Positions 13,145 to 61,415 of a DNA stretch of 64,000 nt are shown piece by piece; the stretch's first letter is position 1, and the number at the start of each line of letters is the position of its first letter. The notes under the pieces are model-generated. The model was not told the DNA's origin. It was given only the letters and a program-made list of their open reading frames with translations, and did no database searches. This DNA is from Brevundimonas sp. (GTDB taxonomy: Bacteria; Pseudomonadota; Alphaproteobacteria; Caulobacterales; Caulobacteraceae). Made by a program: the position numbers and the translations under genes. Location of the stretch: the NCBI GenBank assembly GCA_052436175.1, contig JBQVNM010000009.1; one strand, written 5' to 3'.

Positions 13145-16603
<3,459 letters not shown>

Positions 16604-17066: not shown

Positions 17067-17255
17067 CCCTCTCCCGGCGGGAGAGGGCTTGAGCGCACGC
17101 GGGCGCCAGCGCGCGTTCTTGCGCGAAAGGGTGAGGGGCTGGCGTTGGAGTGGGCATAAGCCTCATCGCCGTGCGACGGCTGGCGCCGACTGGGCCGCCA
17201 ACCCCTCATCCGTCTCGCTGCGCGAGCCACCTTCTCCCGCCGGGAGAAAGGAAGG
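17067..17255. repeat. family-1 structured inverted-repeat element (variant, 'empty')
   Basis: Hairpin cores: CCCTCTCCCggcgGGAGAGGG (17067-17087) and CCTTCTCCCgccgGGAGAAAGG (17230-17251). Flanking 'GGGTGAGGGG' (left) and 'CCCCTCATCC' (right) are in inverted orientation. The element ends 9 nt from the HAD gene stop. Confidence 0.7.
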
Positions 17256-36549: not shown

Positions 36550-37212
36550 ATGGACGGCTCCTACGGCGCAAAGACCTTGCGGCTGAAGGCGCGGAACAAC
36601 CCCAGTCTGATGGTCATGGGCTATGATCAGGCGCGTACCCGCGTCACCGACCTGATCGTCGTGCCCGCCCACTTCTTCACCGAGGCGATCATCGAGCCGA
36701 GGAAGCCGCTGTCGATGACCGCCCGCCGCGCCGGCTGGCAGGGCTGCAACATCCTGATCGGCCAAGTGCCCTTGGCCGGGCGCATCTCCCTGATCCGCAC
36801 CGGCCTGCATGTGCCCAAGGCGACGGTGCTGGACCAGTGGCGATCCACCCTGTTCCTGCGCGACACGAAACAGACCGCGCGCGGCTGGCTGCTCGCCGTC
36901 ATGAACGCGGTCGAGGCGATCGGGCGGCCCGAGTTCAACCTCGACGACGTCTATGCCCACGAGGCGGCGCTCTCGGCTCTCTATCCCGGCAACAACAACG
37001 TCCGCCCGAAGATCAGGCAACAGCTTCAGATGCTGCGGGATCGCGGCTGGTTAGAGTTCAACGGGCGGGGGACATATCGCTTGGCGGCATCCCTCTCCCG
37101 ACGGGAGAGGGGGCTGTGGTGTGAGCCACGTCCGCCCCTGACGCACCAACGCCCTATCCTCCGAGTCCATGACCGAGGAACCCGTTCGCTTTCGCCGCAA
37201 AATTCGCCCTGA
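36550..37212 (+). pseudogene. 5'-truncated DpnI/DRP-family (methyl-directed GATC endonuclease-like) remnant; the 3' end runs into a repeat arm
   Basis: 'DGSYGA...NNPSLMVMGY...VVPAHFF...IEPRKPLSMTARRAGWQGCNILIGQVPLAGRISL...NNNVRPKIRQQLQMLRDRGWLEFNGRGTYRL' aligns with about residues 78-254 of DpnI as I recall it. The Zn-Cys4 and D..ExK catalytic N-terminus is absent. The ORF tail 'SLSRRERGLW...' is encoded by repeat hairpin 37091-37112. Confidence 0.55.
37091..37140. repeat. solo family-1 repeat arm (CCCTCTCCCgacgGGAGAGGG hairpin)
   Basis: 37091-37112 is the same hairpin type as 17067-17087. It lies between the DpnI-like remnant and the ORF at 37169. Confidence 0.55.
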
Positions 37213-37731: not shown

Positions 37732-37887
37732 CCTTCTCCCCTTGTGGGAGAAGGTGGCAGGCGAAGCCTGACGGATGAGGGGTCATGCCGGCGGCTGGAG
37801 TTTGGGTCGAAAGATCGCCGACTTTCGAGGTCTGGGTGACCCCTCATCCGCCCCTCCGGGGCACCTTCTCCCACAAGGGGAGAAGGG
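37732..37887. repeat. family-1 structured inverted-repeat element ('empty' pair)
   Basis: Left arm 37732-37782 is 'CCTTCTCCCCTTGTGGGAGAAGGTGGCAGGCGAAGCCTGACGGATGAGGGG'. Right arm 37840-37887 is 'CCCCTCATCCGCCCCTCCGGGGCACCTTCTCCCACAAGGGGAGAAGGG'. The spacer is 57 bp. Confidence 0.85.
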
Positions 37888-50409: not shown

Positions 50410-50483
50410 GCGGGCATGATGTAGTGGTAGCCTGAAAGCTTCCCAAGCTTTTCGTGCGGGTTCGATTCCCGCTGCCCGCTCCA
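50410..50483 (+). tRNA. tRNA-Gly (anticodon CCC)
   Basis: GCGGGCA acceptor stem, anticodon stem-loop AAAGC-TTCCCAA-GCTTT, T-arm GCGGG-TTCGATT-CCCGC, encoded CCA. It is collinear with E. coli glyU as I recall it. Confidence 0.9.
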
Positions 50484-57210: not shown

Positions 57211-58134
57211 ATGTTCAACGCCTTCTTCAGGGCGCGACCCCGCCTGCGCGCCATCCTGTTCGGCCTGGCCGTCTGCCTGCCGTCGTTCGTCGTCGGCGTC
57301 TCGACCGCCCTCGCGGAGACGCCCGCCGTCGCCGTTCGCAATGACCGGCTGTCGGTCGAGGTGGGCGGGGCCGGGCCCGACGTCGTCCTGATCCCCGGCT
57401 TCGGATCGTCGCGCGAGGTGTGGCGAGCGACGGCCGACCGTCTGAAGGCCACGCACCGGGTGCATCTGGTCCAGTTGGCCGGGTTCGCGGGCGAGCCCTG
57501 GAGCCATGGCGAGGGCGCCTTCGTCGATCCCGAGGTCGAGGCCCTGGCCGCCTATGTGAAGGACGCCGGCCTGAAGTCTCCAGCCGTGATCGGTCATTCC
57601 ATGGGCGGGCTGTCGGCCCTGCTGCTGGCCCAGCGACATCCGGAGACGGTCGGCCGGGTCATGGCGGTGGACAACCTGCCGTTCTTTTCGGCCCTGTTCG
57701 GACCCCAGGCGACGGTCGAGAGCGCCCGGCCGTTCGCGGCCCAGGCGGCGGCGCAGATCCTGAACGCCGACGATGCCAGCTTCCGCGCCGGACAGGTCGC
57801 CACCGCCGAGGGAATGAGCAAGTCACCCGCGACCCGCGCGGCCATGGTGGCGTGGACCATGGCCTCGGACCGGCAGGCGATGGCGGCGGCGATCCGCGAC
57901 GTCATGACCACCGACGCCCGACCCGGTCTGGCGGCCATGAGGGTTCCGGTGACGGCCCTCTATGCGGCCGACGCGGACGGGGGCGCGCCTGCCGCCATGG
58001 CCGATGCGTTGTGGGCGCGGGAATACGCGGCCCTGCCGGGGGTGAAGCTGATCCGCGTGGACGGCAGCCGCCACTTCATCATGGCCGACCAGCCGGAGGT
58101 CTTCGCCGGGCTGGTGGATGAGTTTCTGAAGTGA
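57211..58134 (+). CDS. secreted alpha/beta hydrolase
   Basis: Signal peptide, nucleophile elbow 'IGHSMGG', and C-terminal 'GSRHFIMADQPE'. Confidence 0.8.
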   Translation: MFNAFFRARPRLRAILFGLAVCLPSFVVGVSTALAETPAVAVRNDRLSVEVGGAGPDVVLIPGFGSSREVWRATADRLKATHRVHLVQLAGFAGEPWSHGEGAFVDPEVEALAAYVKDAGLKSPAVIGHSMGGLSALLLAQRHPETVGRVMAVDNLPFFSALFGPQATVESARPFAAQAAAQILNADDASFRAGQVATAEGMSKSPATRAAMVAWTMASDRQAMAAAIRDVMTTDARPGLAAMRVPVTALYAADADGGAPAAMADALWAREYAALPGVKLIRVDGSRHFIMADQPEVFAGLVDEFLK

Positions 58135-58140
58135 GGTTTT

Positions 58141-58286
58141 CCTTCTCCCCTCGTGGGAGAAGGTGGCAGGCGGAGCCTGACGGATGAGGGGGCGCTGGAC
58201 GCCGACTCTAGACTTGGAGATGAGGGACTGCTGAACCACCCCCTCATCCGGCCCTCCGGGCCACCTTCTCCCACAAGGGGAGAAGG
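58141..58286. repeat. family-1 structured inverted-repeat element ('empty' pair)
   Basis: Left arm 58141-58192 is 'CCTTCTCCCCTCGTGGGAGAAGGTGGCAGGCGGAGCCTGACGGATGAGGGGG'. Right arm 58239-58286 is 'CCCCCTCATCCGGCCCTCCGGGCCACCTTCTCCCACAAGGGGAGAAGG'. The spacer is 46 bp. It sits between two convergent stops. Confidence 0.85.
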
Positions 58287-58294
58287 AAAGCGCG

Positions 58295-59122
58295 TCAGTC
58301 CGCCCGCTTCACCGGCGCCCCGGCGAACTCGTCGGCGTAGGCGGGGTTCAGGAGCGGGCGCAGGGCGGATTGCGGCAGGTCGATCTCATAGCCGCCCTCG
58401 GCATAGGGGCCGGCGACATAGGGGCCGATCAGGACCGTCAGGCCGCCCGCCTTGCCGGGCGTGGTCGAGGCGGCGAGGCCGACGACCGTCTCGGACAGGT
58501 GCGGGCACTTCCAGTCCGCGCCGTTCAGGGTCAGGAGGACCGCCTGCGGGTCGCGCTTGCGCTTCTCGACGTTCAGGGCGGCGCACAGCATCCGGTCCAG
58601 GGCGGCCCGGTCGGCGCCGGGTTTCAGCAGGGCGTTGACGTCGATGCGCCGCTTCAGCGCCTTGTCCCACAGGACCGCCAGATACCCGGGATTGCCGTGG
58701 GCGCCGCCAGTGTACTCATAGGCGTTCCCCAGCAGGCCGAACAGTTTGCCGGTGTCGACCGCGCCTTCGTATTGGACGACCTTTTCATAGGGGGGCATGC
58801 CGCCGTCGCCGCCGAACTCGGTGCGATCAGCCTGGGCGCCCTCGACGAAGGTCTTCAGGTCGGCGACCGAGTTGTCATAGAGGGATTTGTGCAGCTCGGG
58901 CTGGGTCTTCAGGGCCTCGGGCAGGGTCAGTTTGACGCTGGCGAAGGCGTTCTTGGAGTCATAGGCGAGGGGGGAGGCGGCGGTGGCCCCGGCCGTGGGG
59001 GCCGCAGGGATGGCGACGGGGGCGGCGGCCTCCTCCTCGGCCTTGCGGTTGCAGGACGCGAGGGCCGCGGCGACGGCGGCGATAAGGATCAGGGACTTGG
59101 CAGCGGCATGGGGGGAGGTCAT
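58295..59122 (-). CDS. DUF3298/DUF4163-type lipoprotein
   Basis: Lipobox 'ALASC'. 'AYEYTGGAHGNPGY' is the signature of the DUF3298 (RsiV C-terminal-like) domain. Confidence 0.65.
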   Translation of the reverse strand: MTSPHAAAKSLILIAAVAAALASCNRKAEEEAAAPVAIPAAPTAGATAASPLAYDSKNAFASVKLTLPEALKTQPELHKSLYDNSVADLKTFVEGAQADRTEFGGDGGMPPYEKVVQYEGAVDTGKLFGLLGNAYEYTGGAHGNPGYLAVLWDKALKRRIDVNALLKPGADRAALDRMLCAALNVEKRKRDPQAVLLTLNGADWKCPHLSETVVGLAASTTPGKAGGLTVLIGPYVAGPYAEGGYEIDLPQSALRPLLNPAYADEFAGAPVKRAD

Positions 59123-59132
59123 GCGGTCTCCG

Positions 59133-60182
59133 TCAGAAGTGGATCGAACCTAACGCGATGCCGGCCAGAAGGATCAGGCCCGCCTCGCGGTTCGACTTGA
59201 ACAGTTTCAGGGCAAGCGCGGCGTCATCAAGGCGAAGCTTGCGGACCTGCCAGAACAGGTGGGCGGCGTAGGCGGCGAGCCCGAGGTAGAAGAGGGGGCC
59301 GAGACCGGCGGCGAGCCCGGCCAGCAGGGCCAGCAGGGCCGCGACGATGTAGAAGATCAGCACGCCGCGACCGGCCGAGGCGCCCAGACGCCGCGCAGAG
59401 GATTTGACCCCGACCATGGCGTCGTCCTCGATATCCTGAAGGGCGTAAATCGTGTCGTAGCCGAGGGTCCAGAAGACGCCGCCGAGCCAGAGGAGGAGGG
59501 CGATGGTCCGGCCCTCGACATAGAGGCTGATGAAGTATTCGTCGGGCGTCGCGTAGTCGCCGAACCCCGCCATCATGTGCGCCAGAAGGCTCGGCTCATG
59601 CCCGACTGCCGGAGGGAAAAGCGCACCCGCGAGAATCGGCGCCGCCGCCGCAAACCCCATCAGGGCGCCCCAGTTGAAGGTCATGCCGAGCCAGGCCTGG
59701 GGCCACCAGGTGATGCGCTTCATGAAGGGGTAGGCGGCGACCAACCCGAGAGAGGCGACGCCCAGAAGCACCGCTGTCAGGTTCAGGGTCAGCAGGATCA
59801 GCAGGCTGATCAGGGAACAGGCGACGATGAAGGCGAAGGCCTGTTTGACGCTGATGCGGCCCGAGGGGATCGGCCGTGACGCCGTGCGCGAGACCTGGGC
59901 GTCGATGTCGCGATCGACGATGTCGTTGAAGGCGCAGCCCGCCGCCCGCATCAGGCAGGCGCCGAGGGCGAAGGCGACGAACAGCCACAGATGATAGAGA
60001 CCCGGCGCCGTCCGGTATGCCGCCAGCGCCAGTACAATCCCCTGCCAGCCGGGCAGGAGCAGCAGCCAGATGCCGATGGGACGGTCGAACCGGCCCAGCT
60101 TCAGCCAGGGCTTCAACCCCTCCGGCGCATGGGCGTCGACCCAGTTCTGGCGCGCGGCGTCGGGAAGCGGGGCGGAGGACAT
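59133..60182 (-). CDS. ubiA: 4-hydroxybenzoate polyprenyltransferase
   Basis: The start is at MSSAPLP (ATG at 60182). 'RFDRPIGIWLLLLPGW...AGCAFNDIVDRDIDAQVSRTASRPIPSGRIS'. Confidence 0.9.
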   Translation of the reverse strand: MSSAPLPDAARQNWVDAHAPEGLKPWLKLGRFDRPIGIWLLLLPGWQGIVLALAAYRTAPGLYHLWLFVAFALGACLMRAAGCAFNDIVDRDIDAQVSRTASRPIPSGRISVKQAFAFIVACSLISLLILLTLNLTAVLLGVASLGLVAAYPFMKRITWWPQAWLGMTFNWGALMGFAAAAPILAGALFPPAVGHEPSLLAHMMAGFGDYATPDEYFISLYVEGRTIALLLWLGGVFWTLGYDTIYALQDIEDDAMVGVKSSARRLGASAGRGVLIFYIVAALLALLAGLAAGLGPLFYLGLAAYAAHLFWQVRKLRLDDAALALKLFKSNREAGLILLAGIALGSIHF

Positions 60183-60230
60183 GGGAGGGTTATAGACGGG
60201 GGCGCTGAAGAGGGGGAGGGGCGCTGTTTT

Positions 60231-60662
60231 CCTTCTCCCCTTGTGGGAGAAGGTGTCAGGCGGAGCCTGACGGATGAGGGGGCGGCTGGTCCATATGCCG
60301 GCGGATGGCGTCGAACACGACATTGGGATTGCCCAGAACCGTCTCGTTGCCGAACCGAAGCACGGTGAAGCCCCGTCGGCTCAGGTCGTCGTCACGGGCG
60401 CGGTCTTCCTCCTCGCGCAGTCGATGCACTCCACCGTCCAGTTCGATGACCAGCCGCAACTCATAGCAGCAGAAGTCAGCGATCCATGGGCCTATGCGGG
60501 TCTGGCGGCGAAACTTGTGGCCCTCGAAGCGGCGAGCGCGAAGCAGCTTCCACATGGCCGTTTCGGCCATGGTCATGTTTGAACGGAGGCGTTTCGTCTG
60601 GTTAGACATACCCCACATCCGTCGCGCTCCCCGCGCCACCTTAACCCACAAGGGGAGAAGGA
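60231..60662. mobile_element. family-1 inverted-repeat element 'loaded' with a DUF559 gene (candidate selfish or ex-mobile unit)
   Basis: Left arm 60231-60282 and right arm 60611-60662 are the same arms as at 58141-58286 and 37732-37887. Here they are separated by 328 bp that are entirely coding for the DUF559-like ORF. Confidence 0.5.
60256..60609 (-). CDS. DUF559 (Vsr-like endonuclease fold) domain protein
   Basis: 'MTMAETAMWKLLRARRFEGHKFRRQTRIGPWIADFCCYELRLVIELDGGVH...DDLSRRGFTVLRFGNETV' is the typical DUF559 pattern. The last 10 codons and the stop are encoded by the repeat arm. An alternative start lies at 60618. Confidence 0.75.
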   Translation of the reverse strand: MSNQTKRLRSNMTMAETAMWKLLRARRFEGHKFRRQTRIGPWIADFCCYELRLVIELDGGVHRLREEEDRARDDDLSRRGFTVLRFGNETVLGNPNVVFDAIRRHMDQPPPHPSGSA

Positions 60663-60668
60663 AATTGT

Positions 60669-61415
60669 CTAGTCCGCCAGCCTGCCCTTCGCCTTCGTCG
60701 CCGGGAACAGCACGTCCTTGTCCGGCTTGTCGGCGGTCTGGCCGGGGCGGTTCAGGGTGGTGAGGATGTGGCGGATGATGTTCAGGCGGGCGGTCTTCTT
60801 GTCGTCGGTGGCGACGACGGTCCAGGGGGCGGGGCCGCTGTCGGTTTCGTCCAGCATGCGGTCGCGGGCGGCGGAATAGGCGTCCCATCTCCCTTGTGCC
60901 TCCGCGTCGAGGGAGGAGACCTTGAACTTCTTGAGCGGGTCTTCCATCCGCTCGGCCAGCCGTTTGGCCTGTTCGCCCTTGGAGATGTCGAGCCACAGCT
61001 TGATCAGCACGATGCCGCTGTCGGTCAGCATCCGCTCGAACCGGGGGGCATCCTTGAGGAACTGCTCATGCTGTTCGGGGGTGCAGAAGCCCATGACGCG
61101 CTCTACCCCGCCCCGGTTGTACCATGAACGGTTGAAGATCACCGTCTCGCCCGCCGCCGGGAGGTGGGGGACGTAGCGCTGGAAATACCACTGGCTGGTC
61201 TCGCGCTCGGTCGGTTTGGGCAGGGCGACGACGCGGGTCTGACGCGGCGACATGAACTCTGTCAGCCGCTTGATGGCCCCGTCCTTGCCGGCGCTGTCGC
61301 GGCCCTCGAAGACGATCAGGACCTTGAGCCCTTTCTCGATGGCCCAGGCCTGGGTGTTGACGATCTCGATCTGAAGCTTCTCGAGGTCGCGTTCGTAGTC
61401 TTTGTTCTTGCCCAT
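60669..61415 (-). CDS. ppk2: polyphosphate kinase 2
   Basis: The start is at MGKNKDY. Walker A 'FEGRDSAGKDG', plus 'FNRSWYNR' and a lid motif. Confidence 0.85.
   Translation of the reverse strand: MGKNKDYERDLEKLQIEIVNTQAWAIEKGLKVLIVFEGRDSAGKDGAIKRLTEFMSPRQTRVVALPKPTERETSQWYFQRYVPHLPAAGETVIFNRSWYNRGGVERVMGFCTPEQHEQFLKDAPRFERMLTDSGIVLIKLWLDISKGEQAKRLAERMEDPLKKFKVSSLDAEAQGRWDAYSAARDRMLDETDSGPAPWTVVATDDKKTARLNIIRHILTTLNRPGQTADKPDKDVLFPATKAKGRLAD

Follow-up and report, generated by a model that had tools for sequence, protein, structure and literature searches.

What is a small nuclease gene doing exactly between the two arms of a palindromic repeat whose other copies in the same DNA have no gene between their arms? 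The question arises from a 64,000-nucleotide stretch of a Brevundimonas sp. genome (GenBank assembly GCA_052436175.1, contig JBQVNM010000009.1; hereafter the window), in which a first-pass annotation made from the letters alone placed a DUF559 nuclease-like open reading frame (ORF) between inverted arms. That annotation proposed that the locus and two gene-less copies of the repeat are related as an autonomous element is to a MITE (miniature inverted-repeat transposable element), and offered as an alternative that DUF559 genes are a preferred landing pad for the repeat. Our comparisons indicate that window positions 60228-60664 are the gene-carrying, or loaded, form of a structured palindromic repeat element, and they give good support to the view that loaded and empty elements belong to a single family and are related in a MITE-like way. 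The recurrence of the loaded cassette, the remnants of gene ends within empty copies, the dispersal of the empties and a polymorphism at the gap-pgk spacer all bear out this structural part of the proposal, and the landing-pad alternative is weakened.

The element is delimited by a 54-nt inverted repeat (60228-60281 and 60611-60664) whose arms are 83% complementary and 329 nt apart, and a 117-aa DUF559 gene is the sole ORF between them, much as first annotated (Table 1). Each arm has three parts, namely an outer hairpin with a 9-bp stem and a 5-nt loop, an inner hairpin, and a 10-nt terminal block (GGATGAGGGG); the terminal blocks of the two arms are mutually complementary, and the DUF559 gene fills the space between them. 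The outer-hairpin pattern CCTTCTCCC-N5-GGGAGAAGG occurs eight times in the window against an expectation of 0.05, and the inner block CAGGCGRAGCCTGACGGATGAGGGG three times against an expectation of 0. Gene and arms overlap in a precise register that the first-pass annotation had read correctly: the stop codon (TGA, 60256-60258) is located in the stem of the left-arm inner hairpin, the last ~10 codons (QPPPHPSGSA) are arm sequence, and the ATG (60607-60609) lies 1 nt from the right arm. The gene-5' arm in relatives reads GGATGAGGGGT-ATG/GTG, and its terminal block is a possible ribosome-binding site for DUF559. The element is asymmetric because its two arms carry different inner hairpins, and empties show the same asymmetry as loaded copies. 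On the gene-5' side the outer hairpin terminates 7 nt short of the ppk2 stop codon (60669); its departures from the consensus are not present in the closest relatives (L132-L135; L numbers are our handles for the sequences compared), where this hairpin is intact.

The two empties of the window family do have closely spaced arms, as had been claimed (Table 1). The further claim that they match the loaded arms almost base for base holds for the left (gene-3') arm, at 96%, and fails in part for the right arm, in which the outer hairpin and the CCCCTCATCC block match and the inner hairpin differs in sequence while still forming a hairpin. The spacer of the 37732 empty reads '..ccgccggcatga|CCCCTCATCC' where the loaded copy reads '..ccgccggcatatggaccagccgcc|CCCTCATCC', a remnant of the DUF559 3' end. 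Two other empties represent further arm families. The copy at 17067-17245 has arms of different outer-hairpin types, CCCTCTCCC..GGGAGAGGG on the left and CCACCTTCTCCC..GGGAGAAAGG on the right, and aligns with a loaded copy (L147) and two empties (L143 and L145) from the gap-pgk spacer of other genomes, with which it forms one hybrid family.

The loaded form is not peculiar to this locus. The closest homologues of the window DUF559 and PPK2 proteins are both from Brevundimonas, and within that genus the arm-gene-arm cassette recurs in at least five unrelated genomic contexts. DUF559 homologues 76-81% identical to the window protein lie between the same arms in the same register at ppk2-ubiA (the window and L132-135), rpoD-dnaG (L121 and L122/L123) and gap-pgk (L124-131), and the same arms enclose more distant DUF559 genes in further contexts at L064 and L119 (52% and 43% protein identity, respectively). 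A count made from proteins, independent of any arm search, agrees: the arm-encoded PHP tail is found in 94 of the 120 closest DUF559 homologue clusters, and in 30 of the 120 the reading continues across the outer hairpin (...AAHLLPRGEKG).

Presence/absence polymorphism, for which the first-pass annotation had suggested a comparison of the ubiA-ppk2 spacer, is found instead at gap-pgk. There, 80 loci were found via PGK and their states read in the Brevundimonas-like ones. L124 is loaded with the window family and L147 with the second arm family; L143 and L145 hold second-family empties at the same site as loaded L147; L140 and L142 hold third-family empties; L146 has a plain hairpin only and no element, and L144 has other sequence. 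Aligned in this way, the orthologous spacer shows loaded, empty and absent states. At ubiA-ppk2 the closest relatives (L132-135, 96% nucleotide identity) are also loaded, and in the next relative (L137, 84%) homology stops at window position 60667, which is both the ppk2 stop and the element edge, with other genes downstream. Two further candidates for this comparison were set aside: L138 has a different gene at that spot, and L098, suggested by its spacing, proved not to be syntenic. Separately, at the rpoD site, L122 (3786-4379) has both an empty and a loaded element, the empty lying directly upstream, and the loaded one has a degraded 5' outer hairpin. L121 has the loaded element only, whose 5' arm shows 100% identity to that of the L122 empty.

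Empty copies retain traces of the gene. What their spacers preserve of the DUF559 gene region is its first 15-30 nt and its last ~20 nt, as seen in the L122 empty set against the L121 loaded element, in the window copy at 37732, and in L143, where the start of the L147 gene survives; for many spacers of other lineages there is no match to any known loaded copy. The remnants fit internal deletion of a loaded copy, and not virgin homing targets. Whole empties, arms and spacer together, are 86-96% identical at loci without flanking homology, whether these lie in different species of Mesorhizobium and Bradyrhizobium or in a single genome, and therefore behave as dispersed repeat families. The gene-less repeat occurs hundreds of times: an exact 33-base arm pattern is present in at least 120 tiles of a genome collection searched as 8-kb tiles and, in IMG/VR, in at least 120 contigs of viral or prophage origin (L236-L355). 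The tiles among the matches listed come from many alphaproteobacterial orders, with some from Gammaproteobacteria and from Planctomycetes metagenome-assembled genomes (MAGs), and in most of the matches listed the arm pairs are 15-110 bp apart. Arms outside Alphaproteobacteria, in an isolate of Legionella massiliensis (L102) and in Planctomycetes MAGs (L014, L025, L082 and L084, for some of which contamination is possible), together with those in viral contigs, suggest horizontal spread, possibly on phages. A DNA search of the plasmid database with the loaded element gave no match.

The enclosed gene encodes a recognisable nuclease under purifying constraint. The window ORF matches Pfam DUF559 (PF04480) at E=3e-35 and 120.8 bits (cut-off 20.6) over profile positions 5-107 of 109; its only other Pfam match is a weak one to MTES_1575 REase, and NCBIfam PRK09767 scores 87 bits, under the equivalog cut-off of 218. 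It matches the solved DUF559 structure PDB 3hrl in sequence (E=1.4e-19), and an AlphaFold model (pLDDT 82) compared by Foldseek, with TM-scores on target (TMt) and query (TMq), finds 3hrl best (TMt 0.86), 3r3p second among PDB entries (TMq 0.60, TMt 0.72) and 1cw0 at 0.39. The second-best match is the catalytic domain of the I-Bth0305I homing endonuclease, which ranks above E. coli Vsr; Vsr, DUF559 and 3r3p are grouped together in a published classification (PMC3424549). The window protein is thus modelled with a Vsr-like restriction-endonuclease fold and has the conserved acidic and His residues: among 30 DUF559 proteins from Alphaproteobacteria, Neisseria, E. coli, Deinococcus and one cyanobacterium, E16, W20, F33, D45, F46, E56, D58, G59, H62, R72, G80 and R85 are invariant, and the putative catalytic-type residues D45, E56, D58 and H62 are therefore kept across phyla. 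The canonical Vsr hallmark, a linked C5-cytosine methyltransferase gene, is absent; the neighbours are ubiA and ppk2 here and rpoD or gap/pgk at other copies. As a side result, Foldseek also matched the model to apicomplexan and ciliate mitoribosomal proteins (9i05, 9g6k and 6z1p; TMq 0.52-0.64), an echo of DUF559-like domains reportedly present in Plasmodium proteins.

Comparison of the window gene with L121, L122 and L124 gave nonsynonymous-to-synonymous rate ratios (dN/dS) of 0.04-0.15 and synonymous divergence (dS) of 0.76-2.9; the DUF559 protein is therefore functional and its copies old. In these comparisons identity between 3' arms is 96-100%, and the arms are thus either much more constrained than synonymous sites or homogenised by gene conversion. 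The protein tail that the arm encodes is dispensable. L132-135 carry a 1-nt deletion in a C-run immediately ahead of the 3' arm (orthologous to window 60256-60290) that shifts the frame of the DUF559 tail, and gene callers therefore annotate a 481-aa DUF559 + UbiA fusion. The window gene (60256-60609) also differs from that of L132 in a mosaic way, the two being 99.0% identical in the first 210 nt and 85.5% identical in the 125 nt that follow. The pattern resembles a gene-conversion tract, for which no donor was found among the paralogues compared.

Such a mosaic is what gene conversion would predict if the repeats had pre-existed and spread by other means, and DUF559 were a homing endonuclease standing on its own that cuts a gene-less element at its centre and is copied into it by double-strand-break repair, with the arms as homology and the empties as unoccupied targets. 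The resemblance to I-Bth0305I, the closest functionally characterised fold, speaks for homing of this kind, as do the position of the gene, always exactly between two complementary terminal blocks, and the coexistence of loaded and empty alleles at one site (gap-pgk). Pure homing nevertheless seems improbable to us. Those empties for which a loaded relative is available retain pieces of the ORF ends and are not intact gene-less targets; the start codon and the stop, like the putative ribosome-binding site, fall within the arms or within sequence shared with empties; arms of 50 nt are short for efficient recombinational repair; and loaded copies are a small minority of elements.

The first-pass annotation had named, as grounds for rejection, other DUF559 genes that are never flanked by these arms. 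We find the opposite, and none of its other grounds for rejection applies, the ORF being a clear DUF559 match. DUF559 genes were sampled by protein similarity alone, including 13 plasmid-database loci and 10 in viral contigs, and ~22 of 25 genes so picked, from several phyla, have family-specific hairpin arms alongside. At the plasmid-database loci, perfect hairpins with homopyrimidine stems occur at 12.8 per 10 kb versus 0.77 per 10 kb in a control of 352 kb of high-GC DNA, and they adjoin the DUF559 gene at 10-11 of the 13. In S. meliloti a 114-nt inverted repeat, 96% complementary, encloses the gene; in Sphingomonas and Qipengyuania hairpin pairs stand on both sides of it; Novosphingobium has a loaded element with its own terminal blocks (GACGGAGGGG / CCCCTCCGTC); and DUF559 loci of Deinococcus, Synechocystis and Neisseria have flanking hairpins too. 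In viral contigs all 10 genes have hairpins of their own family, and the 7 of 7 that are complete have them on either side, the families being CCTCCCCC-N3-GGGGGAGG with GGTGGGGGGAG / CTCCCCCCACC, TCCGCCCC, and TCTCTCCCC with CAGAGAGGGGG / CCCCCTCTCTG. At least five sequence families share a common architecture and register, each with its own complementary terminal blocks.

Another DUF559 locus is that of E. coli ycjD, which occupies one fixed site (sapF-ycjD-fabI) in 3373 of 5426 complete genomes (L230/L233-L235). A palindrome, CCCTCTCCC...GAGGGGG, lies 3' of its stop. We considered ycjD for a filled/empty comparison and rejected it, as strains without it (UTI89-type) carry efflux genes there and the junction is not clean.

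Several observations weigh against a DUF559 enzyme that mobilises the repeat. First, no DDE, HUH, serine or tyrosine recombinase domain is found in the element, its only ORF being DUF559. Second, no direct repeat suggesting target-site duplication was seen at the element edges, where there is only a T-Y / R-A bias and no filled/empty pair is close enough for the junction to be read, and the relatives compared at the window's ubiA-ppk2 site (L132-135, L137 and L138) include no clean empty allele. Third, dS of at least 0.76 marks the loaded copies compared as old paralogues; they come from different samples, no two from one genome, with no near-identical loaded copies at different loci among them, and so give no sign of recent movement of the loaded form. 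Fourth, DUF559 proteins group broadly by arm family, a pattern confounded with host phylogeny and therefore not used here as a sign of cognate recognition. Finally, some associations are loose. The same arms stand around proteins only 43-52% identical, the arms being far more conserved than the gene; in Rhizobiales (L058, L012 and L067) the gene lies beside complete elements and not between arms; and the 120 genome tiles listed hold 2 loaded copies against ~70 empties.

The looseness of these associations is what one would expect if the repeats were moved or made in some other way and merely gathered or persisted at DUF559 genes, DUF559 itself being a host repair nuclease similar to VsrA that uses the arms as ribosome-binding site, stop and terminator. 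The sections of a study of Caulobacter crescentus drawn on here describe VsrA, a DUF559 protein, as SOS-induced and functionally tied to the cytosine methyltransferase ScmA (PMC12907096), which likewise counts against a mobilising role. Such hitch-hiking is, in our judgement, unlikely, if the most serious of the competing accounts. It leaves unexplained the remnants of both DUF559 ORF ends in empties, the existence of at least five unrelated arm families that each have their own DUF559 in the register block-ATG...stop-block, and the occurrence of the whole cassette in five contexts; nor does a cytosine methyltransferase gene adjoin the window gene, where ubiA and ppk2 stand instead.

We show that selection acts on both the sequence and the structure of the arms. 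Among 230 arms surveyed, 194 have the terminal block, and of the 158 distinct inner segments 140 pair into stems no shorter than 4 bp, which show 79 stem sequences between them. In a set of 44 distinct equal-length arms, tested against 500 shuffles, the outer helix is 99% paired and practically invariant, and the inner helix covaries: five of its seven pairs have changed on both sides, in 72 such cells versus 23.7 in shuffles (0/500), and its covariation score, 0.265, compares with 0.057 in shuffles and with 0.016-0.049 when the partners are slid. The loop is C(GNA)G (GAA, GCA, GGA or GTA) in 94 of the 140 distinct inner hairpins. Triloops of the C-GNA-G type are classic unusually stable DNA mini-hairpins, d(GCGNAGC), and their presence here hints at a single-stranded DNA (ssDNA) form. 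As ssDNA, the empties at 58141-58286, 37732-37886 and 15003-15129 fold with z-scores of -7.9, -10.5 and -9.5, respectively.

Folds this stable (z=-8 to -10) would also be expected of structures that the host keeps for its own use, such as terminators, mRNA stabilisers or nucleoid-protein sites resembling repetitive extragenic palindromes (REPs), with the DUF559 link arising from autoregulation or chance. The intergenic position of the elements, a few bp from stop codons, would suit such a role, and rhizobial intergenic repeats are transcribed (PMC3738161). Yet Rfam showed nothing relevant to the element, whether at the gathering threshold over the whole window or in E-value mode over 57900-60900; the T-tracts typical of terminators are absent at the elements; the ~17-fold enrichment of hairpins around DUF559 genes excludes chance; and one orthologous spacer, with its presence/absence and its turnover of families, speaks for selfish dynamics and not for a fixed host function. 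We consider a purely host-serving origin very improbable.

The explanation that we find best, and to which we give about an even chance of being right, is a nuclease-associated selfish repeat in which DUF559 acts in trans on its cognate arms while host replication or repair does the copying. The 3' arm supplies the last codons and the stop, the 5' arm probably supplies a ribosome-binding site, and DUF559 would be the mobilising, 'autonomous' enzyme. Empties derive from loaded copies through internal deletion, keep 15-30 nt of each gene end, and then spread as units. The nuclease, acting in trans, may nick or cut the hairpin or cruciform form of cognate arms, or the junction of two terminal blocks, and host replication or recombination could then copy the element to new intergenic sites, mostly just past stop codons. 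In function this would be comparable to a REP-associated tyrosine transposase (RAYT) with its REP doublets (REPINs), or to a homing endonuclease that stands alone, with a PD-(D/E)XK nuclease as the enzyme. We regard as shown how the element is built, that loaded and empty forms are homologous, dispersed and polymorphic for presence, that protein and arms are under selection, and that the pattern extends across DUF559 genes; we infer that DUF559 binds or cleaves the arms, that ssDNA is the active form and that copying follows this route. A broader and more tentative proposal, which we think less likely than not, is that DUF559 proteins are the missing partner enzymes of a large and ancient class of palindromic repeats found in Alphaproteobacteria and, as related repeats, in Deinococcus, cyanobacteria and Neisseria. 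Such a system would resemble that of REPINs and RAYTs, with a Vsr-fold nuclease in the enzyme's place and with hairpin or cruciform cleavage followed by host repair.

Table 1. Coordinates of the parts of the loaded element and of the empty elements in the window.
Feature	Positions	Strand	Sequence or size	Remark
Outer hairpin, gene-3' arm	60231..60253		CCTTCTCCC-CTTGT-GGGAGAAGG, 9-bp stem	near-invariant across the family
Inner hairpin, gene-3' arm	60255..60271		GTCAGGC-GGA-GCCTGAC	holds the DUF559 stop (TCA on the + strand, 60256-60258)
Terminal block, gene-3' arm	60272..60281		GGATGAGGGG	codes PPHP on the gene strand; complementary to 60611-60620
DUF559 (predicted Vsr-like PD-(D/E)XK) nuclease gene	60256..60609	minus	117 aa	PF04480 match
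Terminal block, gene-5' arm	60611..60620		CCCCACATCC; on the gene strand GGATGTGGGG	immediately 5' of the ATG
Inner hairpin, gene-5' arm	60621..60638		GTCGCGC-TCC-CCGCGCC region	sequence unlike the 3'-arm inner hairpin
Outer hairpin, gene-5' arm	60639..60661		CCTTAACCC-ACAAG-GGGAGAAGG	2 mismatches to consensus
Empty element, window family	58141..58286		146 bp, arms 48 bp apart	flanked by two convergent gene ends; spacer ends resemble gene ends
Empty element, window family	37732..37886		155 bp, arms 57 bp apart	
Empty element, second arm family	17067..17245		CCCTCTCCC..GGGAGAGGG + CTTGAGCGC..GCGCGAAAGGGTGAGGGG / CCCCTCATCC..CCACCTTCTCCC..GGGAGAAAGG	
Empty element, third arm family	15003..15129		127 bp, CCTTCCCCC-TTGAT-GGGGGAAGG ... 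GGGGGTGAC / GTCACCCCC	overall architecture as in the window family

The window has other features of note. Mechanical ORFs run through the arms, which have no stops in some frames: that of ubiA (59133-60323, minus strand) is prolonged 47 codons upstream into the arm, and a 246-aa minus-strand ORF (60256-60996) joins the ppk2 3' region with DUF559. Both can give rise to annotation artefacts. A lone homopyrimidine-stem hairpin, CCCTCTCC-cgac-GGGAGAGGG, lies at 37091-37111, ~60 bp upstream of an ATG, and no partner arm was detected. The motif TGCCGGCG (60296-60303 and 37786-37793), at the DUF559 3' end and in the matching remnant of the 37.7-kb empty, fits YGCCGGCR, which the sections of PMC12907096 drawn on here give as the target of the C. 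crescentus ScmA methyltransferase that is functionally tied to VsrA. The motif is absent from L124, and in a genome of 69% GC its occurrence may be chance. A promoter scan found no sigma-70-like site at the element, a PADLOC scan for anti-phage defence gave no meaningful match, and a tRNA gene at 50410-50480 (59 bits) is the only gathering-threshold Rfam match in the window.

DUF559 is a widespread bacterial domain that Pfam still lists as of 'unknown function', and the REPs that predominate in Alphaproteobacteria are said, in the sections of Di Nocera et al. (2013; PMC3733652) drawn on here, to 'apparently lack a dedicated transposase'. A family-specific link between DUF559 and such repeats joins two problems, a domain without a function and repeats without a mobilising enzyme. 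If the selfish-repeat explanation is correct, the few enzyme classes that drive small bacterial mobile DNA would be joined by a PD-(D/E)XK nuclease, and many mis-annotated ORF extensions, such as PSPLVGEGG... and ...PHPSGSAAHLLPRGEKG tails and DUF559-UbiA fusion calls, would be accounted for. The broader proposal would in addition give a function to a very widespread domain and represent a mode of mobility not described for any bacterial element. Were the main rival account true, the arms would still be a striking case of non-coding DNA that is held far more constant across orders than the synonymous sites of the gene it flanks. Full-text searches of one literature library found no paper that links DUF559 to repeats. 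The repeats themselves may already have been named, the DUF559 association appears to be the new part, and there is a real chance that the mode of mobility is new.

Set beside known systems, the element departs from each of three in one defining property: it has no HUH or other transposase domain as RAYTs do, no target-site duplication like that of MITEs was seen at its edges, and its empties are not the clean targets of a homing endonuclease. With I-Bth0305I and other EDxHD homing endonucleases it shares the catalytic fold and the plan of a small selfish nuclease gene with gene-less 'alleles'. I-Bth0305I, however, is intron-encoded and homes into a protein-coding target, whereas the host here is a dispersed non-coding palindromic repeat whose gene-less copies, where comparable, carry ORF remnants, and protein identity is only 15-16%. 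As with MITEs and autonomous insertion sequences, long and short forms share terminal inverted repeats, and the short, internally deleted form is far commoner and dispersed; unlike them, the long form has no recognised transposase, no target-site duplication is seen, the ends of the element are strongly structured, and one arm is more than a plain copy of the other, their inner hairpins being different. C. crescentus VsrA (CCNA_02930) belongs to the same protein family in a species of the same bacterial order, and is likewise solitary and not linked to a methyltransferase gene; it is proposed to act in very-short-patch repair, with a host repair or genotoxic role, and the passages of PMC12907096 drawn on here are silent on flanking repeats. 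The CGTC-tagged REPs (PMC3733652) are, in the sections drawn on here, also palindromic repeats that abound between the genes of Alphaproteobacteria and often form head-to-head dimers; their 8-9-bp stems start with A/T pairs and they have a CGTC tag and a CCA tail, whereas the outer hairpin here starts with CC and shows none of these features, a comparison made from text description only. REPs and REPINs with their RAYTs differ in that the gene there is an HUH/Y1 (IS200/IS605-type) transposase and not a Vsr-like PD-(D/E)XK nuclease, and in that a REP is a single 20-40 nt unit with a GTAG tag, whereas the arms here are ~50 nt, consist of two hairpins and a block, and overlap the start region and stop of the ORF. 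The two systems are alike in having a low-copy gene flanked by inverted copies of a dispersed hairpin repeat, a repeat found mostly as gene-less intergenic doublets, family-specific pairs of gene and repeat, and an old gene accompanied by numerous repeats.

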